From: a virus
Virus record (IMG/VR): IMGVR_UViG_3300021256_000006
Location: 32,001 to 96,000 of that record
DNA: 64,000 nt
Direction: 5' to 3' (one strand)
The translations under genes and the position numbers were made by a program. Positions 3,068-56,835 of the stretch are shown here, in pieces. The notes beneath the pieces are model-generated. The model was not told where the DNA came from. It saw nothing but the letters and a program-made list of their open reading frames with translations, and did not search any database. Position 1 is the first letter of the stretch, and each line of letters opens with the position of its first letter.

Positions 3068-3082
3068 TTGGAGGACAAAACT

Positions 3083-4441
3083 ATGACGGAAATCGAACAC
3101 ATCAACGCATTGTTGGAGAAAAACACTCCGACATTTGGCGAAAGCGATATGATGGGTATCGCTTGTGACATTGAAGCAGATTTGGATTGGAACTATTATC
3201 CGGATAATGACGCAGAGGTGGCCATTGCCACTCATGCAGACGACTATCAAATAATAACCAACCATGTCATGTATATGTTACAGAAAGTCCACTGGAAAGA
3301 CCTTGACGGTGTGGAGCATGATGGAGAATATGACGAATGGGAAGACTATTATAGCTCGCTTAGTGATGTTGAGCGAGATAATTACGACAACGGATACGAT
3401 GACTTGTTCGATTATTATATGAAAGTCGAAGACGAGGGGGCGTATCGTCAATATTGGTACAATGTCAAGACTGGTGCTTGCTTTGTTCGTGACAGGCTTC
3501 TCGATCATCCAAAATATGGTACTATCAATAATGTCGAAGGAGAGTGGACGCCTCTGAAGGCTATCAAGCCATGCGAGGCGATAGATGAAGCCTATTACAA
3601 GGTTGATTTCAGCATCCATCCTCTTCTCGAAGAGAGAGGCTATGAATGTTTTTCCGCTCAGGAATACAACGATGCCACCGACCCAACAAACGACCATATC
3701 ATTGAGAATCGGATGCAGTTCTTCGATGGCATGAGAACAAATCCACAGTTGTGTTCGGTCATCCGTTACGGAGGATTGAAGATGCTTGGGCTTGTGTCTG
3801 GCGAACACCGTGAGCAATACATTACTGCCGTTAAGATTGCCAACCGACATCGCTATATGCCAGCCGACAAAGGAATGTGGATGGATTACCTTCACGACCT
3901 CATCGAATTGGGCAAAGACCTTCACAATCCATTTTATGTATGCCCCGAAGATTTGAGGGCTGCACATGAGAAATACCACCGCCTCTATGTTAGAGAAATG
4001 GAGAAGAGAGAAAAGGAAAGACGATTGCAGGAACTTATTGCCCGTTCCAAGCCCTATGCACAACGCATTGCTCCATTCCTTTCTCTTGCCTGGCACACCG
4101 ACCAGTATGCCGTGTTTGTCTGCCCATCGGTGGAAGATATGGTGGAGGAAGGACAGAAGATGCACCACTGCGTAGGCATTATGGGCTACGACAAGAAGCC
4201 CGACTCCCTCATCCTCTTCTGCCGCACTCCACAAGGAGAGCGTATCAGCACGATTGAGTACAGCATCAGTCGTGGCAAGGTGTTGCAAAACCGAGCCGCC
4301 TGCAACAAAGTTCCCCTCTATCTTGACGAGGTGAACAAGATGCTTGAAAAGGATGCAGAGCGCATCAGGTCTTGCAAACTTATCAGCATCAACAAAAACA
4401 AAGTTCAACCAGCAGCCGAGGCAATCGCCTTGGCTGCATAA
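3083..4441 (+). CDS. PcfJ-like protein
   Basis: ORF 3068 (TTG) trimmed to ATG 3083. C-terminal GKDLHNPFYVCPEDLRAAHEKY ... EEGQKMHHCVG ... KPDSLILF resembles the Bacteroides PcfJ-like family. Ends in -ALAA. Confidence 0.65.
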   Translation: MTEIEHINALLEKNTPTFGESDMMGIACDIEADLDWNYYPDNDAEVAIATHADDYQIITNHVMYMLQKVHWKDLDGVEHDGEYDEWEDYYSSLSDVERDNYDNGYDDLFDYYMKVEDEGAYRQYWYNVKTGACFVRDRLLDHPKYGTINNVEGEWTPLKAIKPCEAIDEAYYKVDFSIHPLLEERGYECFSAQEYNDATDPTNDHIIENRMQFFDGMRTNPQLCSVIRYGGLKMLGLVSGEHREQYITAVKIANRHRYMPADKGMWMDYLHDLIELGKDLHNPFYVCPEDLRAAHEKYHRLYVREMEKREKERRLQELIARSKPYAQRIAPFLSLAWHTDQYAVFVCPSVEDMVEEGQKMHHCVGIMGYDKKPDSLILFCRTPQGERISTIEYSISRGKVLQNRAACNKVPLYLDEVNKMLEKDAERIRSCKLISINKNKVQPAAEAIALAA

Positions 4442-7510: not shown

Positions 7511-8611
7511 ATGGAAACTATGACAGCAAACGGAGTGACTTACTACCAAGATTGGGAAAAGTCAGAGGGTCACATCTATATGGTAAAGCCCAAGACCATC
7601 AATCGCTACATAAAAATTAAAGAAGAGCATCCACGAGAAGAAGCCTACGGTGTGTTTTTTGCTTTCAGCAAGGAACAGTTTCAGGAAGGCTACAAATCGC
7701 TGGTGCGACGTGGTTACATCAAGGATGGCGACAAGATAACACCCGGTGCTATGGGCATCTATGGCACCGCTGATGAAATAGCACGATTCTTCGATTTCTA
7801 CAATGAACGAGACAAGCGCATCGCTAAGGAGTGCGACCCACAAGAGGTGTATTTCTACGAGTGGAACAACCACGAATGTATGTTTGGCGATGATGACGAT
7901 GTGGTGAAACTCATTGCAGACTACTTCGGCAAGGAAGCAGCCCACAAAATTCATCGGGTGGGAGGTGGAAGGGACATCAACATTCTTGTTCCAATTACCG
8001 AACGAGACCACCACCTGCAAGCCCATGAGCATGACATCCTGCTTCTCTCACGGCTGAAGTATGACTGCGAAGGATTCCTCAGCGAAGGTGACTGCCGACA
8101 CGCCAGACCCAGTGACCTGTGGGCAAAGGATTTGAAAATGCAGATAAAAAAGATGCGAGAGTTGTTAGGAGGACTGCCCGATGACATCAAGGGAGAATCG
8201 CCAGTTACCGAGTCTGACATTGACGACTACGAGAAGAGGATGGTTGACGAACTCTGCAAGGAATTTTCCAAACCCAAATACAATCCTGCACCTGATACAA
8301 CATTTGACGAGTACCACAACGCAGAAATCAATGACGTAGATTTATATTACCAAGACGATGACGGGAAATGGCAACGACCTACCAATGTGTGGTTTTCCAA
8401 TGATTCCAGACGCTGGCATCTCAATGATGCCAACACACACGGCAGAGCATTCACATCCTACCTTGGCAAGCATGGCACCACGTTGGCTCCAGTCTATTAC
8501 ATGAGTTGGGGGTCATTGACGAGAAGGCCCTACGTCAACCAGAGATTCTGCAACGTCACCGCCCGCTACGACCATGAATCCGAACGACTTTACGATTTTT
8601 ACAGAGAATAG
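7511..8611 (+). CDS. Hypothetical protein (366 aa)
   Basis: ORF track; CAACTATGGAA start context; no family recognised. Confidence 0.55.
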   Translation: METMTANGVTYYQDWEKSEGHIYMVKPKTINRYIKIKEEHPREEAYGVFFAFSKEQFQEGYKSLVRRGYIKDGDKITPGAMGIYGTADEIARFFDFYNERDKRIAKECDPQEVYFYEWNNHECMFGDDDDVVKLIADYFGKEAAHKIHRVGGGRDINILVPITERDHHLQAHEHDILLLSRLKYDCEGFLSEGDCRHARPSDLWAKDLKMQIKKMRELLGGLPDDIKGESPVTESDIDDYEKRMVDELCKEFSKPKYNPAPDTTFDEYHNAEINDVDLYYQDDDGKWQRPTNVWFSNDSRRWHLNDANTHGRAFTSYLGKHGTTLAPVYYMSWGSLTRRPYVNQRFCNVTARYDHESERLYDFYRE

Positions 8612-9529: not shown

Positions 9530-9606
9530 CCCCCAGGGTGTGTGAGTGTAGCAAATATCTCACACATCCACTAATTTCAAATTCATCATCTAAATCATCA
9601 ACAATT

Positions 9607-12600
9607 ATGGCAACAAAACTACAAAGGCTTCGCGACAACATCGAAGCCATCAGGCACGCCCTGACATCCCCGCATTACGATGCCGACATCATGAACAAGT
9701 ACACGGGATTTGGCGGCATGACTTTTCTCCTCAACAACTTGGAGAAGAAATCATGGAGCAAGACTGACAAGCCCTGCTATGACGACACCGTGAAACTGCG
9801 CCAGCTGCTGCATGACAAGAGCGAGAACGAGAAACAATACGAGGCATGGATACAGAGTCTGAAGGCAAGCACATCTACCGCCTACTACACACCAAGGGAG
9901 ATTCCTCAAACGCTCTTCGACAATCTCTACCACATGGCAAAAGGTTGGTACGACAGCAACATCTATCCCAAAAAGGTGCTTGACCCATCAGCAGGAACTG
10001 GAGTCTTCATGTGCTCTGTCCTCCAAGCCTCTCTGGATTCCGGCAACATCCCTAAGCAAGTGGGCTACGAACTTGACCTACTCACAGGAACTATCCTCAA
10101 ACAAAGACTCCTGGGGCATGACATCCGCATCAAGGGTTTTGAGACCATCCCGAATGAAGACCTCGGCACATTCGACCTCGTGACCACCAATGTTCCCTTC
10201 GGCAACATCAACGTGTTTGACCCTCTCTACACCAATAGCAAGGAGCAAGTGAAAAGGGATGCAGCAAAGATGATCCACCGCTACTATGTGCTGAAAGGTC
10301 TTGATTGCCTCCGCAATGGAGGAGTGCTTGCCTACATCATCACCAGCAACTACATCAACCGTGACAACGACCAATTGGCAGAAGCGCTGAAGCACGCCAA
10401 CCTCGTCACCGCCATCCGATTTCCGAACAACCTCTTCAAGGAGGCGGGAACAGAAGTAGGGACCGACCTTCTCATACTCCAGAAGGACGAGCACAAGCAA
10501 GCTCTCACAGAAGACGAGCAGCAACTCCTCACACCTATGGAAATGGACGATTGCCCAACCAACCTCTACTTCAACAATCATCCCGACCACATCATTGCCA
10601 CCTCCACCGAGATAGGCACCGACCCCTACGGAAAGCCTGGCTATATCTACTACCACAAAGACGGAGTGCAAGGCGTAGCCGCAGACATGGGCCGCTTGCT
10701 CAAAGCGGAATTGCCAAACATTGACAAGTCTGCCTTTCAAAAGGGCCCCTCACTCTCTCCATCTTCCTCCCTTGCAGTCAGCGGTTCCCCCGCTGACACC
10801 ACTTCCCCCGCTCCCACCGCCAAGCATCCCATTCCTAATTCCTCATTCCTCATTCCTAATTCCGAACCCCTCTTCTTCCACTATGCCAACAAGTTTTTCC
10901 TCTTCTTCACCTTTGCACCAAGCAAGCATCAAGCACCTGCAAGCAAAGAACAGAAACTGAAAAACTTGCACAAGTTATACACCGACCTCTACAATTACGA
11001 GGCAAGCTATCAGAACGAGGACGAAGAAGGGCGCTGCAAGTTGAATGCTTCTTATGATTTGTTCGTCAGGTCTTACGGTTTCCTGAACGATTCCAAGAAT
11101 GCTTCTCTTGCCAAGCGTTTAGGCATTACCGACTTGCTTGCCATTGAGCGTTACGAGAATGGCACATGGGTAAAGGCAGACATCATGCTGGCACCCGTCG
11201 CCTTCTCCACCGACGAGGAACCGAAAGCGAGCTCACCCCAAGAGGCATTGGCAGCATCGCTGAATAAATACGGAAAGCCCAATATTGATTATATGCTCTC
11301 CATCACCACCTGTACCCGTGACCAACTTCTCAGCGAACTGCATGACGAGGTGTTCCTCAACCCCATCAACGGGCAATACGAAGTCAGGGCAAAGTTCCTC
11401 AGCGGAAATGTGATTGAGAAGATTGATGCAATCGAAAAACTTTCAGCTTCTCAACTGTCAACTGCGACCTGTCAACTTTCGCTGAAGGCTCTCAAGTCTG
11501 TCATCCCCGCTCCCATTCCTTTTGAGGAACTTGACTTCAACCTTGGCGAGCGCTGGATTGACTGCAAGGTGTATGAGCGCTTCGCCAACGACTTCTTCTC
11601 CATGCCTGGCAACACTCCCGACATCGAGGTGCGCTACAATCCTCTCCTCGACCAGTATGCAGCAGGTCTCAGGAAATGGGACTGGAATGAGAAGATACGC
11701 ACTCAGTACGCGGTCAAGAGTGAAGCATCCAAGACGCTTGACGGACTTGAAATATTCACTCATGCCCTGCATAATACAATACCCAAGTTGATGAAGTATC
11801 AACGAGACAAGGAAGGGCGCATCATGACGGACGAGAACTACGATAAAATTAAAATAGAGGACTCGGAGAATATGCAGTTGGCAGCAACCAAGATTGAAGA
11901 AATCAGACAGGCATTTGAGGAGTGGCTACGCCGACAGCCAAGGGAGTTCAGGGATGATTTGGCCAGCGTATACAACCATCGCTTCAACTGCTTTGTCAAG
12001 CCTAAATATGACGGTAGCCATCAGACATTCCCGGACCTCAACATGAAAGGGCTGAAAGAAAAGTATGGCATTGACCACATCTACGACAGCCAAAAGGATT
12101 GCGTCTGGATGCTCTTGCTGAATGGTGGTGGCATCTGCGACCACGAGGTAGGAAGCGGAAAGACACTCATCATGTGTATTGCAGCCCACGAGATGAAACG
12201 TCTCGGACTGTGCCACAAGCCAATGATAATAGGCATGAAGGCCAACGTGAGTGCCATAGCAGAAACATATCGGACAGCATATCCCAATGCTCGCATCCTC
12301 TTCGCTACAGAGGCTGACTACTCGGCAAGCAACCGTATGGCGTTCTTCAACAACGCCAAAAACAACGACTATGACTGCATCATCATGAGCCACGACCAGT
12401 TCGGACGTATTCCACAGAGCGAAAAAATACAGCTCGACATCATGTGCGACGAACTGCGACAGGTAGAAGACAGTCTGACAGCAATGGAGGATTGGGGCTA
12501 CAAAGTGACTTCAAAAATGCTCCGTGGATTGGAGATTAGAAAGCGCAACCTTCACGCAAAAATCATGAACCTCCGCAATTCTATCAATTCGAGGAAGGAT

Positions 12601-14628
12601 GATATTGTGGACTTCGAGAGGCTGGGCATTGACCACATCTTCATTGACGAGAGCCACCAGTTCAAGAACCTCGGCTTTGTGACACGGCATGACCGCGTGG
12701 CTGGCATTGGCAACACACAGGGCAGCAAGCGTGCTTTCAATCTGTTGATGGCCATCCGCACCATACAGAACCGCACAGGGCGTGACCTCGGTGCCACCTT
12801 CCTCAGTGGCACCACCGTTACTAATTCCCTCACAGAACTGTTCCTTCTCTTCAAGTATCTCCGGCCCAATGCACTTCGCAAACAAGCCATCACTTGCTTC
12901 GATGCTTGGGCTGCTATATTCACGAAGAAGAGCACGGAGTTCGAGTTCAATGTCACCAACTGCATCGTTCAGAAGGAGCGCTTCCGTTACTTTATCAAGG
13001 TGCCGGAACTCGCCATGTTCTACAACGAGATTACAGACTTCCGAACGGCAGAGGATGTCGGCATCGAACGACCCCAAAAGCATGCAAGACTGCTGAACAT
13101 AAAGCCGACACCGGACCAAGAGGGCTTCATTGAGCGTCTGATGAAGTTTGCGCAGGGAGGTTCCCCTTCCCTGATATTCCGTGAAAGCCTTTCCGACAAC
13201 GAGGAAAAGGCGCGTATGCTTATCTGTACCGACCTCGCTCGAAAGATGTCTCTGGATATGCGGCTGATTGACCCTCGCTTTGGTGATCATCCATCCAACA
13301 AGGCAAGCCAATGCGCCAACCTCGTCAAGAAGTATTATGATGAATATGACGACCAACGTGGCACACAGCTCATCTTCTCCGACATATCCACATGGCAAAA
13401 CAATACCGATTGGAGTGTGTACAGCGAAATCAAGCGAAAGCTGATGGACATGGGCATACCTGGCAGCGAAATCAGGTTCATTCAGGAGTGTAAGAACGAC
13501 CACCAAAAACAATTGCTCATTGAGCAGGTCAACCTCGGATATGTGCGTGTCCTCTTTGGCTCCACATCCATGCTGGGTACCGGAGTGAACCTCCAGCAGC
13601 GAGTGGTGGCCGTGCATCACCTCGACACACCGTGGCGACCTTCCGACCTCGAACAGAGAGACGGACGGGCCATCCGGAAAGGAAACGAAGTGGCACGGCT
13701 CTATGCCAACAACCAAGTAGATGTTATCATCTATGCTGTTGAACGCTCGTTGGACTCTTACAAGTTCAATCTCCTGCACCTCAAACAAACCTTCATCAAC
13801 CAACTCAAACGAGGACAACTCGGAGTGAGAACGATTGACGAGGGCAGCATGGACGAGAACGGCATGAACTTCTCGGAGTACATGGCTATTCTTTCCGGCA
13901 ACACCGACTTGCTGGAACGTGCCAAACTGGAGAAGCGCATTGCCATGCTGGAGGCCGAACGCAAGAACTTCTACCGTGACCAGCGAGAACAAGAGGAAAA
14001 AATGGAAACGCTGAAAAAGGATAACGAGCTCTACAAAAATCACCTTGCAGACGCCCAAGCCGACTTTGCCAAGTTCAACAAAGCAAGGCGCCTCGATGAA
14101 GAGGGCAATGTAGTGAACGACCTCCGTCTGGATGGTCTCGCACTCAGCGGTTCCCCCGCTGAGATACAAACCCTCCTCGGCAACCACCTCATCAAAATTG
14201 CCAACACCGCCAGAACACAAGATGCCCACCTTCCCATCGGCTCCATCTATGGATTCAAGGTGCTGGTCAAGACGGTGGAGACAGCAACGATGGACGGCAA
14301 TCCGCAGTACGCTAATATGTTCTTTGTCAGCAGCGACACACTCATGTATTCTTACAATAATGGCTACATCAATCGCAACTCTCCCAAGGCATCAGCACTC
14401 TACCCGCTGAACGCCTTGCAGCGCATCCCGGAAATCATCACTGGGTGGATGGAGAAAATCGAAAGCAACGAGAACAGCATCAAGCAGATTGCATCTATCC
14501 TTTCCGCAACGACTGAATGGTCAAAGGAGGACCGTTTGAAGCAGCTGAAGAATGACCTCAAACTTCTTGACAAGAAGATTGAGGAAGACATGAAGAAAAA
14601 GGACGAGCCCACCAAGAAAGCAGCCTAA
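9607..14628 (+). CDS. N6-adenine DNA methyltransferase / SNF2-family helicase fusion (P1 DarB-like architecture), 1673 aa
   Basis: Trimmed to ATG 9607 (ACAATTATGGCAACA). MTase motifs VLDPSAGTGVF and TNVPFG; helicase motifs GSGKT, DESHQFKN, LSGTTVTN, GTGVNLQ, QRDGRAIRKGN; coiled-coil C-terminus. Ends in -KAA. Confidence 0.85.
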   Translation: MATKLQRLRDNIEAIRHALTSPHYDADIMNKYTGFGGMTFLLNNLEKKSWSKTDKPCYDDTVKLRQLLHDKSENEKQYEAWIQSLKASTSTAYYTPREIPQTLFDNLYHMAKGWYDSNIYPKKVLDPSAGTGVFMCSVLQASLDSGNIPKQVGYELDLLTGTILKQRLLGHDIRIKGFETIPNEDLGTFDLVTTNVPFGNINVFDPLYTNSKEQVKRDAAKMIHRYYVLKGLDCLRNGGVLAYIITSNYINRDNDQLAEALKHANLVTAIRFPNNLFKEAGTEVGTDLLILQKDEHKQALTEDEQQLLTPMEMDDCPTNLYFNNHPDHIIATSTEIGTDPYGKPGYIYYHKDGVQGVAADMGRLLKAELPNIDKSAFQKGPSLSPSSSLAVSGSPADTTSPAPTAKHPIPNSSFLIPNSEPLFFHYANKFFLFFTFAPSKHQAPASKEQKLKNLHKLYTDLYNYEASYQNEDEEGRCKLNASYDLFVRSYGFLNDSKNASLAKRLGITDLLAIERYENGTWVKADIMLAPVAFSTDEEPKASSPQEALAASLNKYGKPNIDYMLSITTCTRDQLLSELHDEVFLNPINGQYEVRAKFLSGNVIEKIDAIEKLSASQLSTATCQLSLKALKSVIPAPIPFEELDFNLGERWIDCKVYERFANDFFSMPGNTPDIEVRYNPLLDQYAAGLRKWDWNEKIRTQYAVKSEASKTLDGLEIFTHALHNTIPKLMKYQRDKEGRIMTDENYDKIKIEDSENMQLAATKIEEIRQAFEEWLRRQPREFRDDLASVYNHRFNCFVKPKYDGSHQTFPDLNMKGLKEKYGIDHIYDSQKDCVWMLLLNGGGICDHEVGSGKTLIMCIAAHEMKRLGLCHKPMIIGMKANVSAIAETYRTAYPNARILFATEADYSASNRMAFFNNAKNNDYDCIIMSHDQFGRIPQSEKIQLDIMCDELRQVEDSLTAMEDWGYKVTSKMLRGLEIRKRNLHAKIMNLRNSINSRKDDIVDFERLGIDHIFIDESHQFKNLGFVTRHDRVAGIGNTQGSKRAFNLLMAIRTIQNRTGRDLGATFLSGTTVTNSLTELFLLFKYLRPNALRKQAITCFDAWAAIFTKKSTEFEFNVTNCIVQKERFRYFIKVPELAMFYNEITDFRTAEDVGIERPQKHARLLNIKPTPDQEGFIERLMKFAQGGSPSLIFRESLSDNEEKARMLICTDLARKMSLDMRLIDPRFGDHPSNKASQCANLVKKYYDEYDDQRGTQLIFSDISTWQNNTDWSVYSEIKRKLMDMGIPGSEIRFIQECKNDHQKQLLIEQVNLGYVRVLFGSTSMLGTGVNLQQRVVAVHHLDTPWRPSDLEQRDGRAIRKGNEVARLYANNQVDVIIYAVERSLDSYKFNLLHLKQTFINQLKRGQLGVRTIDEGSMDENGMNFSEYMAILSGNTDLLERAKLEKRIAMLEAERKNFYRDQREQEEKMETLKKDNELYKNHLADAQADFAKFNKARRLDEEGNVVNDLRLDGLALSGSPAEIQTLLGNHLIKIANTARTQDAHLPIGSIYGFKVLVKTVETATMDGNPQYANMFFVSSDTLMYSYNNGYINRNSPKASALYPLNALQRIPEIITGWMEKIESNENSIKQIASILSATTEWSKEDRLKQLKNDLKLLDKKIEEDMKKKDEPTKKAA
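10741..10945 (+). repeat. Intergenic-type repeat module embedded in-frame between the MTase and helicase halves
   Basis: Contains a hairpin copy (10777-10797), TTCCTMA heptamers (10829-10862), a CACCTTTGCACC box and a ~70-nt paralog of 9459-9529. Confidence 0.7.
10777..10797 (+). repeat. GC hairpin family copy (inside ORF, translated as SGSPA)
   Basis: cttgca GTCAGCGG-TTCCC-CCGCTGAC. Confidence 0.8.
14144..14162 (+). repeat. GC hairpin family copy (inside ORF, translated as SGSPA)
   Basis: ctcgcac TCAGCGG-TTCCC-CCGCTGA. Confidence 0.8.
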
Positions 14629-31442: not shown

Positions 31443-31495
31443 ACACTAACCGTTTTCGTTTTCGTCTTCGTTTTGGTTTTCGTTTCTCCTGCGCT

Positions 31496-31512
31496 CAGCG
31501 GTTTTCCCGCTG
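31496..31512 (+). repeat. GC hairpin family copy
   Basis: cctgcgct CAGCGG-TTTTC-CCGCTG. Confidence 0.85.
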
Positions 31513-31569
31513 GCCCTCTCTCCTCGTCTCTCCCGCCGTTTTCGTTTTCGTTTTCGTTTCTACTGCGCT

Positions 31570-31603: not shown

Positions 31604-32101
31604 TCAGCAATAATTGAACGGCATAACCACATTGACGTGCAGCACCACACTCTCCCAACCGTCTCCAAACGGACCGGTTGTGTCCCAGCTTAGATTGTCC
31701 ACATCAATCCAGAAAGCCAGCCCCATTGTATGATTCTTTTTGGCATCTTTGTGCGCAGAGACAAGGTCTTTGACAAACGCCTCAGTCATGTTTTGGGCGC
31801 GGTCAAGCGCTGCCGCCAGCCCTTGTGCGTTGGCATAGTCTGGCTCTCGGGCATTCATGTACAGTTCAAACGTGGCATACTTGAAGTCGCCTCTTTTCCC
31901 ACCGCCATAATTGAGGTCCATCATGGTAGAGTGAAATATCTCATTGCTCGCATGCTGCAGCATGTCCATCTTGCCCGCAAAGCCGTTGGCCAAAAAGCAC
32001 GCATCACGTTCTTCTTGGTTGCCAGTGATTCCCAATGCCTGGTGCATTCTGTCTGCAGTCCATATCTGCAAATACTCGAACATTTCTTCTCGCAGTGTCA
32101 T
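31604..32101 (-). CDS. Hypothetical virion-module protein (165 aa)
   Basis: ORF track; in the minus-strand structural operon; no family recognised. Confidence 0.45.
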   Translation of the reverse strand: MTLREEMFEYLQIWTADRMHQALGITGNQEERDACFLANGFAGKMDMLQHASNEIFHSTMMDLNYGGGKRGDFKYATFELYMNAREPDYANAQGLAAALDRAQNMTEAFVKDLVSAHKDAKKNHTMGLAFWIDVDNLSWDTTGPFGDGWESVVLHVNVVMPFNYC

Positions 32102-43893: not shown

Positions 43894-44526
43894 ATGAGCG
43901 AAAATAGACAAATGACAATGGGCGGCATCCCTGTTGATGTAGCCGACGAAACAGCAAGAGCAGCCATCGCCGCCATTCAAGCCCTTATTCCCTCCGAAGC
44001 ATCGGAAAGCAACCAGCTCGCAGACAAGAATTTTGTCAACTCTACGGTTGCAACCAACACGGCGACCTTCCGTGGCACATATAACCTTGTTTCCGACTTA
44101 GGCTTGACCATATCTGCCACGCAACAACAGATTGCTGCCGCATTGGCTACCGAGGTGGACGTGGCAGACAACAACGACTACGCCTATGTGCAGATTCCCA
44201 CATCCGCACAAAGACCTACGGAGATAGCAAGGATAGACCGATACAAGTTCAACGGCACAGCATGGGGGTTTGAGTACACGCTAAATAATTCTGGCTTTAC
44301 GGCAGACCAATGGGCTGCAATCAACTCCTACATCACGTCCGACTTGGTTTACAAGTTGCAACGCCTACCCGATTCCAATACTCTGAGCACCTTGCTGAGC
44401 GGCAAGCAAGACGTTATTTCAGACCTCGCAGCGATTCGTGCTGGCGCACAAGCAGGTGCAACGGCACTCCAACCTTCTGACATTTCTGTAGGGGCAGTGA
44501 TAACCGATATAACAACAATACTATAA
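43894..44526 (+). CDS. Fibre-associated protein (210 aa) ending in VITDITTIL
   Basis: ORF track; C-terminal motif shared with the next gene. Confidence 0.45.
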   Translation: MSENRQMTMGGIPVDVADETARAAIAAIQALIPSEASESNQLADKNFVNSTVATNTATFRGTYNLVSDLGLTISATQQQIAAALATEVDVADNNDYAYVQIPTSAQRPTEIARIDRYKFNGTAWGFEYTLNNSGFTADQWAAINSYITSDLVYKLQRLPDSNTLSTLLSGKQDVISDLAAIRAGAQAGATALQPSDISVGAVITDITTIL

Positions 44527-44536
44527 CTATAAGACT

Positions 44537-45109
44537 ATGGCAGACTCAGTAAATATCAAGCACGTATTTGGCAACCCTCTCCAAATAGCCATCCCTCTCA
44601 CACAAAGAATAAGAACGTTGGAGGGCGGGCAAGAGATTGAACGCACGGAGGATTTCTTCCCTTCTGGTGATGTAAAAGTCGTATTGTGGAGTAACATAAG
44701 GACATACGAATACATCGCCACTATGGATGGAAATGTGGCGATTATAACCGATGATAAGGGAGAGGTGAGTAGCGGTCTATATGGGGTGACGATTACTTGT
44801 TTAGACCAAGAGGGAAAATCGCGAAGATTTGCAATTGCTGATGCAATAAAGATAGTCACCTATACAGCAGATGCAGGGATAGTTGCAGGAGTTGAGTTTA
44901 ATGCGGAAACATATACACTTGAAGGTGCGGTCTTCTTTTATGCCAAGGGAGAAAAGGGTGATAAAGGCGACCCATTCACTTATGAAGACTTTACTCCTGC
45001 ACAGATAGCGGAATTGCAAAAGCCTGCAACCGATGCTGCACAAATGGTAAATGAAACATTATCACACTACATTGGGAACGTGATAACCGACATAACTGAT
45101 ATTCTTTAA
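44537..45109 (+). CDS. Fibre-associated protein (190 aa) ending in VITDITDIL
   Basis: ORF track; short collagen-like KGEKGDKGDP; shared C-terminal motif. Confidence 0.45.
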   Translation: MADSVNIKHVFGNPLQIAIPLTQRIRTLEGGQEIERTEDFFPSGDVKVVLWSNIRTYEYIATMDGNVAIITDDKGEVSSGLYGVTITCLDQEGKSRRFAIADAIKIVTYTADAGIVAGVEFNAETYTLEGAVFFYAKGEKGDKGDPFTYEDFTPAQIAELQKPATDAAQMVNETLSHYIGNVITDITDIL

Positions 45110-45128: not shown

Positions 45129-47018
45129 ATGACTAAAGAAATAAGACCATTGCAGCGGTATAATGCGAATACCGAACAGACAGAAATTTTCTATCCTGCC
45201 ACAACGACCGACGCGATTGCGCACCCCACAAAAAGAAAGTCGCTAACAAACGTGATTTCTGACATAGAAGCAAGTATTGCCGACATCGAGACGATTGCCG
45301 AGGGCTATGTGCGTGTGGCTGGTTCGTCAAGTCCTGCTCTCTCTTACAAGTCATACAAGTATCACGAACAGGGCGGCTTCGGACGTGAATCTGTGTTCTC
45401 GCTGTTCTACCCCTGTCTGGTGGGAACACCGCTGACAGGCAGTGGCACAGAAGGCAAGGTGCTTCATGTGCTTCAGAAGTTCGGTGCAAGAACTATCGAC
45501 GGAAGCCCGAAATGGCTTGACATCTACGGAACACCTCATGCCATCGACGGCTCGGAGGGTGACGTGCTGATTGTGAACATTGAACCATTTTACAGCATCA
45601 ACGGCAAGCACACAATCGAGGGCACGGAGTATGATGTATTCCTGATGTCGCGCTCACCATTCACCTGGCAGGGCATCGAGGCAGAGCACATGGAGAAGTT
45701 CGGATGGAGCCCTGACTACTGCGTGAGCCATACGGACACCGACAACGTGGTGCGTATGCACTCAGTTTATAACCCTGCGTGGAACGGATCATACCAAGCA
45801 CCTCAAGGCGTGACTGGCAAGTACGTCTATACCACCGACCCTGAGACGGGCGACATTGTGGAAACCTATGATGCAAACGAGACACTGCTGGGTGGTGCAG
45901 GTGGCTTGCACTCTACTGACATCGACCTGACTACGGGTGAACAACGAGCCATGAACATGAACGCTGACCCGACGAAGACCGTGCCATGGATGAACCAGAC
46001 GGCAGAGGGTTGCAACCGACTGATGTCGCTGATACTGGCAGAGGGTGGCACGTTCGATGCGCACAACGCAGCTCGTATGGGTAGTGGTTTCTCATCCAAT
46101 GACCCCGCCACCGCAGCAGGCGACTGGGAACAGGCGGGCAGCGGTGCGAAGAACGGTTTGCGCGTGAAGGACAAGAACGACGCATGGAAGTACTACGGAA
46201 TGAACGGCAACGTCCGCTTCCTGACGGGTGCAACGTCGGGTGCGGTGTATGCTGCCAACGTTATCAACTCTTGGCGAAATCCGTGGCACATTCTGGAGGC
46301 GCACCGTGCGATGTCGTATGCTATTGAGAACGACGTGCACGAGCTGGAGTGGTTTGTGTTCGAGGGCAACAAGTACAAGTACCGCAGCGTGCAAGGCTTC
46401 AACGGTCCGAGTCACGGAGAAATGACCTGTGTGGTGTGGAAGCTCATGGCAACACAGGCTGGTGCCAATGCCATCGACCCGACAGACAACGCAACGAGCA
46501 TCGCAGGCAATCGCGTGGAAATACTCGTCAGCACAGCACTCGTTCACGGCATGACTACGCAGGTATCACCTTCGTGGTGGACTTCAGGACTGCTGTTCAC
46601 GGAAGATGAGAGCGGACAGTATGAGTGCTTCATTGAGCGCGACCAGGCAGAACTGGTGAAGGGCATTGCCGCTGACAATTACGACCCAGCAACACCACGA
46701 AACTTCGAGACTATCTACGATCATGTGCTCACCGTACAGAAGGGCGAAGGCTACGCTAAGAACTATCTGAACGGAGCGCTGATGCTGCCTGATACCAATG
46801 CCAACAAGACTGGGGCAGGCTTGCATACCTATGTTGGCAAATACAACTGGTTTACGGGTAGCAATGCAAGTGCTGGGAAGCGGTCGGTCCGTGGCTTCCG
46901 GCGCGGCGCCCTCGCTAACTACGCGGTCCTGTCTCCGTTGGCGCTGAACGCTTACTACTCGCCCTCGGGCGCGGGCACGGGCCTCGGCTTCGGCACCTGT
47001 TGTCGCATAGCGGAATAG
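45129..47018 (+). CDS. DGR target protein (fibre-like, 629 aa) with a C-terminal variable region
   Basis: The last ~45 codons (RSVRGFRRGALANYAVLSPLALNAYYSPSGAGTGLGFGT...) are the VR homologous to the TR at 47252. Confidence 0.85.
   Translation: MTKEIRPLQRYNANTEQTEIFYPATTTDAIAHPTKRKSLTNVISDIEASIADIETIAEGYVRVAGSSSPALSYKSYKYHEQGGFGRESVFSLFYPCLVGTPLTGSGTEGKVLHVLQKFGARTIDGSPKWLDIYGTPHAIDGSEGDVLIVNIEPFYSINGKHTIEGTEYDVFLMSRSPFTWQGIEAEHMEKFGWSPDYCVSHTDTDNVVRMHSVYNPAWNGSYQAPQGVTGKYVYTTDPETGDIVETYDANETLLGGAGGLHSTDIDLTTGEQRAMNMNADPTKTVPWMNQTAEGCNRLMSLILAEGGTFDAHNAARMGSGFSSNDPATAAGDWEQAGSGAKNGLRVKDKNDAWKYYGMNGNVRFLTGATSGAVYAANVINSWRNPWHILEAHRAMSYAIENDVHELEWFVFEGNKYKYRSVQGFNGPSHGEMTCVVWKLMATQAGANAIDPTDNATSIAGNRVEILVSTALVHGMTTQVSPSWWTSGLLFTEDESGQYECFIERDQAELVKGIAADNYDPATPRNFETIYDHVLTVQKGEGYAKNYLNGALMLPDTNANKTGAGLHTYVGKYNWFTGSNASAGKRSVRGFRRGALANYAVLSPLALNAYYSPSGAGTGLGFGTCCRIAE
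46880..46999 (+). repeat. DGR variable region (VR); may extend to ~47015
   Basis: Ungapped 120-nt match to 47252-47371 with 21 mismatches, all at TR adenines. Confidence 0.85.
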
Positions 47019-47062
47019 AAAACGTAAACCCCGCGAGCAAGGCGAGCGCGAAAACGAAAACT

Positions 47063-47079
47063 GCGCGGCTGAGCCGCGC
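47063..47079. promoter_or_regulatory. GC-rich hairpin/cruciform downstream of the VR (candidate DGR target-recognition element)
   Basis: GCGCGGC-TGA-GCCGCGC, perfect 7-bp stem, 45 nt after the stop. Confidence 0.4.
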
Positions 47080-47108
47080 CCGCTGAGCAATAGCGAAGGC
47101 TATAATAC

Positions 47109-47127
47109 TGCCGCAAGGCGGCATTTT
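47109..47127 (+). terminator. Weak terminator-like hairpin
   Basis: TGCCGC-AAG-GCGGCA followed by TTTT. Confidence 0.3.
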
Positions 47128-47251
47128 GCCCGAATAGTGTGGAGATGTGGTGCGACATCGTTGAAGCAAAAATCCATGCCACCGACCAAAGCGCACAAGG
47201 GAATCGGAGTACCCGTCAGGTGGTGAGGTTGAAATAAGGCGGCTGCACTGT

Positions 47252-47371
47252 ACGGTCGGTCCGTGGCTTCCGGCGCGGCAACAACGCTAACAACACGAAC
47301 CTGTCTCCGTTGACGATGAACGCTAACAACTCGCCCTCGAACGCGAACACGAACATCGGCTTCGGCAACTG
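47252..47371 (+). repeat. DGR template repeat (TR)
   Basis: In the target frame it carries 12 AAC codons (..GNNANNTNLSPLTMNANNSPSNANTNIGFGN*); non-coding context. Confidence 0.85.
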
Positions 47372-47575
47372 AAACGCAGTAACGAAATACATAAGCCCTC
47401 CAATGCTTGACCTGAGCATGAAGAGGCAGGTGCAGAGCCTCGCTGACGAAGAGAGCGGAACAACGCAGGAAAAGGTGCTAAGACCACCAGCCGACCGCGC
47501 AAGAATGAGCGAAGGAAAGGGTAGGCTGCAAGGCGTTCAAAAACCTTGCTATCGGCGCAACAGGTCATAAAGCGT

Positions 47576-47592
47576 TCAGCGGTTCCCCCGCT
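47576..47592 (+). repeat. GC hairpin family copy in the DGR TR-RT spacer
   Basis: aagcgtt CAGCGG-TTCCC-CCGCTG aaaaac, 20 nt before the RT ATG. Confidence 0.85.
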
Positions 47593-47612
47593 GAAAAACA
47601 AAGAAAAGAACA

Positions 47613-48941
47613 ATGGGGACATCCACATGGAACAACATCACCACCGGCCTTCACGCTGCTGTATATGACAGCTACATGGCCAAGAGCTCACGCCAACGCG
47701 CCAAGCGTGAGGTGGTGGAGGTCATGGCAGATGTGGACGGGTTCTGCCAACGGAAGCAGGCAGAGCTGGCAAGCGGCAGCTACCATGTGGGTGACTATCG
47801 TCACTTCCAGTTGAAGGACAAGAAGAAGGAGCGTAGCATCTCTGTACTGCCCTATGAAGACCGCTGCGTGCAGAATGCTATCAAGGATGCCATAGAGCCG
47901 CTATTGCTCCGTCAGATGACCGACGACATGATGGGAGGTCTGCCTGGTTGCGGCGTGCTGGCAAGCGACAAGCGGCACCAGGTGGTGGCACGGATGCGGG
48001 TGATGCTGAACGACCGCTCGCTGAGGTATTGCTTGCAAGGTGACATCGAGAAGTTCTACGACCATGTGGATAATGTCATCAGTATGCGGCTCATTGAGAA
48101 GCAGGTGAAAGACAAGCGCACAAGGGCGGTTATCCGTCAACACCTCTTCAACCAGAAGCGGCTCGCTATTGGTGATCCATTCAGTCACCTTATCGCCAAT
48201 CTCAATACGTCGGTCATTATTCGCAAGGCAAAGGAGTTGTACGGCAATAGCATCAAGGTGGTCAATTTTGCCGACGACTTCATAGCCTTCAGCAGAGACA
48301 AGACAATCCTCAATGCCCTGCGGAAAGATATGAAGATATGGGCAAAGGCGATGCGGTTGCATTACAAGCCGATGTACGTGCGTCCCATAGACCCGCAACC
48401 AGGAAAGGAATACAACCCTATTATCTTCTGCGGCTACAAGTGCGGGCGTGGTTATGTTCACCTCACCCCGCGCACTAAGAAACGATACGTCAAGACCCGA
48501 CACAAGGAACGCAGTATTGGCTCCTATCAGGGCATTATCGGCGTGGCTGACACGAAACATCTGAGACTAAAAGTACAAATTAACGATAACAAAACTATGA
48601 GCGAGAAAATCAGGCGACCATTTGCAGGACGCCCCATGAAGATAGAAACGATGGAAGGTATCAACCACACCATTGTGGACTTTCAGAAACGCAGCAGCAA
48701 TCAGAAGGACTGCGACAGTTACTATCACATCCAGGCACTTGCCGACGGGCTGGGGCTAATAGTCTATTCGACGGGCGCACAGAAAATCTGCAAGTATCTC
48801 GACACCAAGAGAAGGACGGACATCCCATTGCGTGACATGAAGATAGTGCACGACTGGAGTGGATTCTACTACGATGGCACCGTATATACCGATGCCGAGG
48901 AAGAGGAAATGATTCGCAAACAATTTAACATATCGAAATAA
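47613..48941 (+). CDS. DGR-type reverse transcriptase
   Basis: 442 aa; RT blocks SISVLPYEDRCVQ, LQGDIEKFYDHV, IGDPFSHLIANL (DGR-like I/LGxxxS box), NFADDFIAF (YxDD-type). Confidence 0.9.
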   Translation: MGTSTWNNITTGLHAAVYDSYMAKSSRQRAKREVVEVMADVDGFCQRKQAELASGSYHVGDYRHFQLKDKKKERSISVLPYEDRCVQNAIKDAIEPLLLRQMTDDMMGGLPGCGVLASDKRHQVVARMRVMLNDRSLRYCLQGDIEKFYDHVDNVISMRLIEKQVKDKRTRAVIRQHLFNQKRLAIGDPFSHLIANLNTSVIIRKAKELYGNSIKVVNFADDFIAFSRDKTILNALRKDMKIWAKAMRLHYKPMYVRPIDPQPGKEYNPIIFCGYKCGRGYVHLTPRTKKRYVKTRHKERSIGSYQGIIGVADTKHLRLKVQINDNKTMSEKIRRPFAGRPMKIETMEGINHTIVDFQKRSSNQKDCDSYYHIQALADGLGLIVYSTGAQKICKYLDTKRRTDIPLRDMKIVHDWSGFYYDGTVYTDAEEEEMIRKQFNISK

Positions 48942-48942
48942 T

Positions 48943-49284
48943 ATGAGACAAGAACGATTTTCAGAGCCTCACAAGCAAGGCTTGATGAAGCTCACTGGTG
49001 ACAACACAGGACTGGTGTACTGCAACGAGCGCACCGAAGTAGTAACCGACGAAGAGGGCAACGAAAAGACGGAGTACGTGTACGACGTGTACGAGGTCAC
49101 AGATGCCCGCGACCCTCACAAGGTGAAGAATGAGGTGATAGAGAATGAGCACCCCTTCGGCGATGAGACGAAGATACTGCGCAAGACCATTGCCAAGATG
49201 CTAAAGGCATCAGGTCAGTATAACAGCGAGGACTTCCGAGAGTTTAAGCAATACAACGAATTTGTCGAAAGCATCGACGTATAG
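48943..49284 (+). CDS. Hypothetical acidic protein (113 aa)
   Basis: Starts 2 nt after the RT stop; Glu/Asp-rich; not Avd-like. Confidence 0.45.
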   Translation: MRQERFSEPHKQGLMKLTGDNTGLVYCNERTEVVTDEEGNEKTEYVYDVYEVTDARDPHKVKNEVIENEHPFGDETKILRKTIAKMLKASGQYNSEDFREFKQYNEFVESIDV

Positions 49285-54344: not shown

Positions 54345-54410
54345 GCCCTCTCTCCTCCCTCTCTCCTCCCTCTCGTCTTCGTTTTCGTTTTCGTTTCTTC
54401 CCCCTGCGCT

Positions 54411-56736: not shown

Positions 56737-56835
56737 AACACATTTCCACATTTTCACATTTTTACACTTTCCCATTTCCGTATCTCCCCATCCCCCCGTT
56801 TTCGTCTTCGTTTTCGTTTTCGTTTTCGTTCTCTC
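56737..56835 (+). repeat. CACATTTY ~8-mers followed by six CGTYTT hexamers
   Basis: cacatttccacattttcacattttt (56740-56765) and hexamers 56797-56832. Confidence 0.8.

Follow-up and report, generated by a model that had tools for sequence, protein, structure and literature searches.

A diversity-generating retroelement with no avd in its cassette and its tail-fibre-like target in an uncultured Bacteroidales phage

Results

Organization of the locus

The DNA analysed here (hereafter the window) is 64,000 nucleotides long, spans positions 32,001 to 96,000 of IMG/VR virus record IMGVR_UViG_3300021256_000006, and belongs to an uncultured phage with a genome of ~99 kb. It carries a diversity-generating retroelement (DGR) whose parts follow one another on the plus strand. 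A gene that encodes a 629-amino acid tail-fibre or receptor-binding-like protein (the target; 45129–47018) contains a variable repeat (VR; 46881–47002) within its last ~45 codons. It is followed by a non-coding template repeat (TR; 47252–47374), a spacer (Sp; 47375–47566), and an open reading frame (ORF) for a 442-amino acid reverse transcriptase (RT; 47613–48941) that starts 238 nt past the end of the TR. The RT consists of a core (residues 1–330; 47613–48602) fused to a C-terminal domain that we designate X (residues 331–442; 48603–48941). An acidic 113-amino acid ORF designated w113 (48943–49284, plus strand) begins 2 nt after the RT stop codon.

The initial annotation of this locus, made from the sequence alone, described a complete DGR that diversifies the C-terminus of a tail-fibre-like protein. 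Our analysis supports the DGR interpretation as a whole. The word complete holds for the minimal parts (target with VR, TR, and RT) and fails for the accessory gene avd. No plus-strand ORF of at least 40 amino acids lies between the target and the TR, and the cassette ORFs that were scanned matched no Avd family in Pfam, NCBIfam, or PHROGs; window ORFs elsewhere were not scanned for avd. Avd accompanies ~74% of DGRs and is essential in that of phage BPP-1, although it is not universal.

Adenine-specific differences between VR and TR

A formal alignment of 46880–46999 (VR copy) with 47252–47371 (TR copy), which are offset by 372 nt, needs no gaps. The 120-nt alignment contains 21 mismatches, every one of which replaces an A in the TR copy (A to G, 11; A to C, 5; A to T, 5). 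In the VR, nine TR adenines are retained, and differences at non-A positions do not occur; the probability that 21 mismatches would all land on the 30 A sites among 120 positions is ~1e-16 (hypergeometric). In the frame of the target, the TR carries 12 AAC codons, 10 of which are altered in the VR. All the numbers given in the initial annotation are thereby reproduced, including the start of the RT ORF (recognized by its IGDPFSH and NFADD boxes) at 47613, 241 nt past 47371. The non-adenine mismatches that it had named as grounds for abandoning the idea did not appear. The A-only gapless run continues to 47002/47374, with 24/24 mismatches at TR adenines over the extended run. At the other end, 46880 marks the edge of the homology; positions 46876–46879 mismatch at non-A positions, and we therefore place the start of the VR at 46881.

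The VR corresponds to codons 585–625 of the 629-codon target. Within it, the stretch that is actively diversified (46908–46983; residues 594–619) faces 27 TR adenines, the TR containing 33 in all. Read in the VR frame, the TR is interrupted by TGA, a stop codon, where the target has codon 624. No second VR templated by this TR was found in the window on either strand, partial matches included. We applied the criterion that at least 75% of TR/VR mismatches fall at TR adenines in a DGR; here all of them do, and the arrangement of a VR at the 3′ end of a coding gene with a non-coding TR beside the RT gene is that of a DGR.

Recent turnover of the VR

Searches of metagenomic data returned 396 homologues of the target protein. 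One of these (P0001) is encoded on L001, a 99,478-bp contig in the European Nucleotide Archive that represents an independent assembly of the same phage. The window and L001 differ at 15 positions in 21,890 aligned bases. All 15 lie inside 46908–46983 and every one coincides with a TR adenine, whereas the two TRs are identical. Two assemblies that are otherwise alike over 21.9 kb therefore point to very recent turnover of the VR. Heterogeneity at A sites in population data, the lack of which was to count against a DGR, is thus seen between assemblies, from which alone, rather than from reads, our evidence of activity is drawn.

The same pattern extends through the family. Two 629-amino acid relatives of the target (P0511 and P0512) have a common backbone and unrelated VRs. 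Across 116 homologues and 585 aligned positions, the 11 AAC-templated residues occupy entropy ranks 1–11; the mean entropy is 2.79 bits for TR-A codons, 0.27 for other VR codons, and 0.50 elsewhere. In 24 distinct related VR/TR pairs, 424 mismatches occur at TR adenines as against 22 at other positions (95% A-specific). As a separate observation, two target homologues (P0075 and P0106) end in unmutated TR-encoded sequence (...RG(NN|TY)A(NN|IN)T(N|I)LSPLTMNANNSPSNTNSNIGFGNY), which reflects either collapse of VR and TR during assembly or genuine VR-TR recombination.

The 3′ end of the VR (46985–47002, plus strand) resembles an initiation of mutagenic homing (IMH) element. It begins with the G+C-rich sequence CGGCTTCGGC, and VR/TR differences occur at 46996 and 47000–47002. 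Because the window and L001 agree at these positions, and because the GFGTCC peptide end is nearly invariant over 116 homologues, we read them as fixed differences of the IMH type and not as products of mutagenesis. By its likeness to the corresponding segment of BPP-1, 46985–47002 would constitute the IMH. Gapped similarity continues past the repeat ends between 47003–47024 and 47375–47396 (TCGCA-TAGCGGAATAGA versus CGCAGTAACGAAATACA), again with G-for-A differences. This pair, visible in the window, was considered as the IMH and dropped; other loci do not conserve it. The similarity may survive from the duplication that gave rise to the TR.

An RT of the DGR class

The RT core (47613–48602, plus strand) matches RVT_1 at an E-value of 1.9e-15 and contains R74, the box IGDPFSH (residues 186–192), and FADD (residues 219–222). 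Among sequences in the PDB, the best match is the Bordetella DGR RT (bRT; 8ub7, E 4.9e-11), followed by the group II intron RT GsI-IIC (E 1.4e-7). An AlphaFold2 (AF2) model of the protein has a pLDDT of 78, and a fold search with this model placed three bRT structures (8ub7, 8ubd, and 8ubc) at the top (E 8e-16; TM-score 0.78 on target), ahead of G2L4 and group II RTs. Identity to bRT is ~23%. In a tblastn search of deposited phages, the RTs of Bordetella, Hankyphage, and crAss-like phages were matched.

Group II and retroviral RTs carry a QGxxxSP box, whereas in DGR RTs the box opens with I, V, or L and does not close with proline. The RT described here has I186 at the first position, lacks the proline, and has bRT as its nearest solved relative. 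A phmmer alignment equates R74 with bRT R74, I186 with bRT I181, and H192 with bRT Q187. R74 and I181 of bRT promote adenine mutagenesis, whereas the bRT mutation Q187P leaves the frequency of misincorporation at A unchanged (PMC7826257). For this last reason we read the SH ending of the box as a variant of the clade that does not exclude the enzyme from the DGR class. SH is found in 120/121 and FADD in 119/121 RTs of the family, and a 46%-identical RT (L043) also has H for Q.

The initial annotation held that clustering with group II intron, retron, or abortive-infection RTs would tell against it. Instead, bRT is nearest by both sequence and fold, and scores for the other classes in NCBIfam are far below their cut-offs: 67 bits against 300 for group II (TIGR04416), 23 against 235 for retron St85, and 21 against 200 for Drt3a. 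PADLOC gave weak generic RT matches only, and Rfam detected no group II intron or retron RNA anywhere in the window.

Domain X is fused to the RT

X (48603–48941, plus strand) is an α/β domain with an isoelectric point (pI) of 8.0 that is conserved throughout the family and modelled with a pLDDT of ~80–88. In two distant relatives, X is encoded by a separate ORF of ~111 amino acids that overlaps the 3′ end of the RT gene. These relatives are L002, whose RT is 48% identical, and L043, a contig of 90 kb from an isolate, Prevotella sp. MGM1, whose RT is 46% identical. The occurrence of X as a separate protein there and as a fusion here argues for a functional link between X and the RT. The domain has no significant match in Pfam, the PDB, or 50,697 phage records. 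We considered X as an arenavirus nucleoprotein C-terminal (exonuclease) domain and did not accept the assignment, which is sub-threshold throughout. Matches to Pfam PF17290 (9/15 family members, best E 0.012) and to nucleoproteins in the PDB (E 0.6–0.8) are non-significant.

C-terminal extensions of up to 150 amino acids with no known motif occur in ~20% of DGR RTs according to the part of Wu et al. 2018 (PMC5758913) considered here. In the same part of that survey, the alternation between a stand-alone and a fused X is not among the features described for Avd-less DGRs.

Structured RNA around the TR

The non-coding DNA that surrounds the TR shows greater conservation than expected. The regions that flank the TR were aligned across 24 distinct loci with MAFFT, and a structure of 53 base pairs in 11 helices was curated by hand. 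The tested pairs are 97.0% paired, and 21 of the 53 show compensatory change. Column shuffles gave 9.6±1.5 such pairs (0/500 reached 21) and controls with slid partners gave 3–7. Our claims about RNA structure are drawn from this covariation because single-sequence folds are no better than those of shuffled sequences.

Upstream of the TR lies a 5′ structured domain (47174–47228, plus strand) that consists of helix H1 (47174–47186/47215–47228) and inner pairs 47199–47200/47212–47213, with covariation at 6/13 pairs. A second element brackets the TR: its upstream strand (47237–47249, plus strand) pairs with 47429–47440 in the spacer to form a duplex of 11 pairs that is 97% paired and shows compensatory changes at 4. 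From the upstream strand of this duplex it is 4 nt to the start of VR/TR homology, and the downstream strand corresponds to spacer positions ~55–66.

In addition to this downstream strand, the spacer RNA between the TR and the RT gene (47375–47566, plus strand) contains helices H3–H8, all on the same strand. H3 (47395–47400/47423–47427) is invariant. H4 (47403–47407/47415–47419) displays an invariant GACCUG in its loop (47409–47414). The remaining helices are H5 (47441–47444/47454–47457), H6 (47474–47477/47485–47488), H7 (47489–47496/47520–47527), and H8 (47528–47533/47544–47549). H4 and H8, two hairpins that come in addition to the curated pairs, were misaligned by MAFFT; compared sequence by sequence, H4 is formed by at least 14 different complementary stems and H8 by at least 10. 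The GACCUG of the H4 loop is complementary to an invariant CAGGUC at 47561–47566, and this complementarity marks the two segments as a candidate loop-to-tail pseudoknot. No Rfam family matched the cassette at a permissive threshold or the whole window at the gathering threshold.

In BPP-1, a duplex between Sp 59–70 and avd 369–379, called cPRT Stop, ends cDNA synthesis, and an equivalent duplex is predicted in 207 Avd-containing DGRs (bioRxiv 10.1101/2023.10.23.563531). The duplex between 47237–47249 and 47429–47440 parallels cPRT Stop, with the difference that here there is no Avd and the upstream strand is non-coding. A search for a template:primer duplex did not identify the priming nucleotide. 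A47428, which lies between H3 and the bracketing duplex, is placed like A56 of the BPP-1 spacer, and it is tempting to speculate that this residue is the priming site.

Just ahead of the ribosome-binding region of the RT gene, 47576–47594 forms a 7-bp hairpin (TCAGCGG-TTCCC-CCGCTGA). In other loci, hairpins at this position differ or are missing. The stem seen here resembles an intergenic hairpin found genome-wide.

The target is a tail-fibre-like protein

The target has no sequence match in Pfam, PHROG, NCBIfam, or the PDB, and matches to CLec, FGE, or DUF1566 in particular are missing from Pfam. Its AF2 model, built from a 49-sequence alignment, is confident (pLDDT 90.4; pTM 0.87) and shows a disordered N-terminus, a helix at residues 33–54, and a large β-rich body. 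Searches of BFVD with this model returned viral proteins described as 'receptor binding complex', crAss-like tail fibre, and tail collar fibre (E 1.8e-35 to 9.6e-4), the tail-fibre models of crAss-like phages matching at E 7e-18 to 7e-14. An FGE-sulfatase-like viral model matched at E 9.6e-4.

In the PDB, the best structural match is weak. TaqVP (5vf4), the variable protein of a Thermus aquaticus DGR with a C-type lectin or FGE-like fold, occupies the top three ranks at E 9.9e-3 and a probability of 0.80–0.94, with a TM-score of 0.28 by query length and 0.43 by target length and 10% identity. Both proteins have their VR at the C-terminus; the phage protein is larger and contains extra β-rich parts. 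As regards a C-type lectin or Ig-like scaffold for the VR, the confident model has TaqVP as its nearest solved structure, and this match is weak.

The gene stands at the end of the tail module. It is preceded by a gene for a 1646-amino acid tail protein and two small ORFs, and followed by a holin-like gene and a gene for an M15 endolysin. Most of the 396 homologues have a different, longer N-terminal part. Conversely, the N-terminal ~50 residues of the target (residues 1–52; 45129–45290) recur at 63–92% identity on proteins of 500–900 amino acids. Five of these (P0291, P0292, P0294, P0322, and P0331) carry C-terminal parts unrelated to that of the target, among them a GDSL esterase (P0331) and a metallophosphatase with Big_2 (P0322). 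This distribution suggests that the N-terminal ~50 residues serve as a common module for attachment to the virion. Gene position, the swappable N-terminal module, and the structural matches bear out the label tail-fibre-like and fit a modular receptor-binding fibre.

The two small ORFs upstream (43894–44526 and 44537–45109) end nearly alike, in ...VITDITTIL and ...VITDITDIL, and the junction TATAAGACTATG precedes both of them as well as the target. The second has a collagen-like GEKGDKGDP stretch and weak matches to tail-fibre PHROGs. These ORFs resemble a series of interchangeable fibre cassettes.

w113 and deletion derivatives

In every related locus with sequence at this position, w113 lies directly 3′ of the RT gene, except in L014, where the RT is wholly deleted. 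The position of this conserved ORF (pI 4.8) holds down to 46–49% identity, whereas the other flanking genes differ. Pfam, PHROG, NCBIfam, the PDB, and 50,697 phage records contain no match to it.

Two loci (L014:3079–3471 and L017:2683–3123) are natural deletion derivatives in which the 5′ RNA domain runs straight into the 3′ end of the RT gene. The junction keeps the last ~20 RT codons in L017 and fewer in L014; the TR and RT are gone. Both loci retain w113 and a VR that was diversified and is now frozen. In a third locus, L042, the RT has an internal deletion. Because w113 is retained in L014 and L017 after loss of TR and RT, it may serve the fibre (for example its assembly) and not the RT; it is either a component of the cassette or a gene linked to the fibre.

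Repeats downstream of the VR

The stop codon of the target is followed by modules (47019–47127, plus strand) in which an A-tract (AAAACGWAAAC) is combined with G+C hairpins at 47063–47079 and 47109–47123, the latter followed by TTTT. Most related loci likewise carry such modules after the target stop, the number of copies varying from locus to locus. The hairpins start ~60 nt 3′ of the VR, and the DNA downstream of the VR folds no better than shuffled sequences (z −0.15). AAAACGWAAAC occurs 8 times in the window compared to 0.1 expected, including three other intergenic sites. The repeat, in which (GAAAAC)n or AAAACGWAAAC tracts alternate with G+C hairpins such as CAGCGGGAAAACCGCTG, is found at 31452–31554 (minus strand), 47019–47061 (plus strand), 54381–54391 (minus strand), and 56810–56826 (minus strand). 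Candidate roles are those of a terminator, an element for RNA stability, or an array of protein-binding sites.

Phage backbone, hosts, and mobility of the cassette

Relatives come from metagenome-assembled genomes of rumen Bacteroidaceae and Bacteroidales and from Prevotella sp. MGM1. Megablast and tblastn searches of deposited phages with the cassette, backbone, target, X, and w113 gave distant RT matches only; none of 50,697 phage records matched the target at the nucleotide or protein level. The best of these by tblastn, Hankyphage p00 and the crAss-like phages cr55_1, cr6_1, and crAssphage LMMB, also carry DGRs and infect the same host order. Their RTs are 23–30% identical to the one described here, and the match ends before X. 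They also differ in backbone: the present phage is long-tailed, and a 2245-amino acid ORF elsewhere in its window carries a tape-measure domain.

The cassette (45200–48100) has a G+C content of 0.54–0.59 compared to 0.43–0.50 in its flanks. It sits in different phage backbones, which is consistent with horizontal movement and suggests that the DGR cassette moves as a unit. Elsewhere in the backbone, 1111–2178, 3068–4441, 7511–8611, and 9538–14628 encode anti-restriction, PcfJ-like, LPD11 polyvalent-protein-domain, and DarB-like proteins; the DarB-like protein has 1696 amino acids with antirestriction, methyltransferase, and helicase parts. A ParA-family ATPase is encoded just beyond these genes (L001:20447–21208). 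This gene set is reminiscent of P1-like phage-plasmids.

Discussion

Taken together, these results lead us to conclude, with a probability of roughly 90%, that the locus is an active DGR, carried by a tailed phage with Bacteroidales (Prevotella-like) hosts, and that it diversifies the tip of a tail-fibre-like protein with a presumed receptor-binding role. According to this model, an RNA would be transcribed across the 5′ structured domain, the TR (47252–47374), and the structured spacer. Pairing of 47237–47249 with spacer positions 47429–47440 would loop out the TR. The RT (47613–48941) would then make a cDNA of the TR, copying C, G, and U faithfully and misincorporating opposite A, and this cDNA would replace the VR (46881–47002) at the 3′ end of the gene at 45129–47018, with the G+C-rich, IMH-like end directing homing. 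Replacement would randomize 16 codons (11 AAC, 3 ACG, 1 ATG, and 1 ATC; 27 adenines) in which stop codons cannot arise. The DGR would thereby rewrite ~16 residues, giving ~7e15 possible proteins varied on the presumed ligand-binding face of the fibre. With 16 codons randomized, the phage population would keep a spread of adsorption specificities. The tropism switching through the 45129–47018 protein that the initial annotation proposed may follow from such diversification.

Several observations weigh against this interpretation. The box IGDPFSH departs from the strict signature [I/V/L]GxxxSQ, and the cassette lacks an avd homologue although BPP-1 requires Avd. No promoter for the TR RNA was identified, a sigma-70 scan being uninformative for Bacteroidales. 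Folded as a single sequence, the spacer RNA is not better than shuffles (z −0.9). Assignment of the target to the C-type lectins leans on a weak PDB match (E 9.9e-3). Finally, the hairpins downstream of the VR, which were considered as a DGR-specific cruciform, are weakened as candidates: because the same motif occurs at three other intergenic sites in the genome, they cannot be claimed as a cruciform for target recognition.

The alternative that survives best, which we consider unlikely, accepts the DGR and assigns the diversified protein a function other than determination of host range. The protein might bind mucus glycans or other cells, act as a decoy, or be an accessory fibre, and its VR would turn over without a switch in tropism. 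Adhesin-like targets have been proposed for phage DGRs (tentaclins, PMC10743442), the target belongs to no assigned sequence family, and primary adsorption could be the task of the 1646-amino acid tail protein and the two small fibre-like ORFs upstream. However, the target has strong structural counterparts among the receptor-binding and tail-fibre proteins of phages, the gene ends the tail module, and the swappable N-terminal anchor is common to fibre-like proteins that bear esterases and phosphatases. Moreover, the targets of viral DGRs, which have been catalogued by the thousand, are mostly tail proteins (PMC8144416). These points favor a receptor-binding tail fibre.

Far less probable is a relic, in which VR and TR testify to past activity and retrohoming has been lost. 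Decay does occur in the family, as the frozen VRs of L014 and L017 and the internally deleted RT of L042 illustrate, and the missing Avd and the replacement of the signature Q by H could be taken as signs of it here. Yet a relic would hardly leave two assemblies that are alike over 21.9 kb except at 15 TR-A sites in the VR and that have identical TRs. In addition, the RT ORF is intact, FADD and R74/I186 are conserved in ~120 relatives, and structural constraint acts on the flanking RNA. An ordinary duplication or gene conversion beside a group II, retron, or defence RT, to which the weak generic matches to group II, retron, and DRT models in NCBIfam and PADLOC might point, is effectively refuted already by mismatches that are 100% A-specific here and 95% over 24 loci, by scores far below the family cut-offs (67 versus 300 and 23 versus 235), by the lack of group II or retron RNA among Rfam matches in the window, and by bRT as the best match in sequence and fold.

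Diversification of tail fibres by phage DGRs has been familiar since BPP-1, and the active DGR proposed here is ordinary in kind. As in the mtd-avd-TR-brt cassette of BPP-1, target with VR, TR, and RT follow in order on one strand, and the gene for a tail-fibre receptor-binding protein has the VR at its 3′ end. The two systems also have in common an AAC-rich TR, A-only mismatches, and a G+C-rich VR end with fixed IMH-type differences after it; bRT is the closest solved relative of the RT, and the equivalents of its R74 and I181 are kept. Unlike BPP-1, the system here has no avd, and its 442-amino acid RT has an extra 112-amino acid C-terminal domain and SH in place of SQ. The target, at 629 amino acids, has no detectable sequence similarity to Mtd, which ranks 12th by fold (E 0.72). 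Its variant features are thus the absence of Avd, the RT-X fusion, the SH box, w113, and the RNA that resembles cPRT Stop.

Also comparable are the Avd-less DGRs of Bacteroides and relatives that are assigned to Architecture A/E and Lineage 3/3A in the part of Wu et al. 2018 (PMC5758913) on which we draw. As described there, these lineages resemble the present system in a TR-RT core without avd, Bacteroidales hosts, and an acidic ORF; C-terminal extensions are described for ~20% of DGR RTs. Lineage 3A cassettes without avd carry a small conserved acidic ORF, CH1, of 160–169 amino acids and pI 4.7, compared to 113 amino acids and pI 4.8 for w113; this comparison is one of published description (PMC5758913, same part).

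How would such a DGR dispense with Avd? X, and possibly also w113, may take over its role. One conceivable arrangement, which we put forward tentatively and regard as rather doubtful, is an Avd-independent ribonucleoprotein in which the basic ~110-residue X positions the template RNA in place of Avd, w113 is a possible second cofactor, and the TR-bracketing duplex and the putative GACCUG/CAGGUC pseudoknot complete the assembly. If true, this would amount to a compact DGR engine in a single polypeptide, and a one-protein DGR would simplify tools for targeted mutagenesis. X serves as a natural 'Rosetta stone': some genomes encode this accessory-like module on its own, and others have it fused to the RT. 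For mechanism and engineering, the system is also of note as a lineage without Avd in which the RNA duplex believed to halt cDNA synthesis is still present.

General knowledge of DGRs is unchanged by this finding, which is of moderate interest for their mechanism and engineering. For phage biology, it adds another well-documented case of a DGR and a probable receptor-binding protein diversified by it, in the abundant uncultured phages of rumen and gut Bacteroidales.

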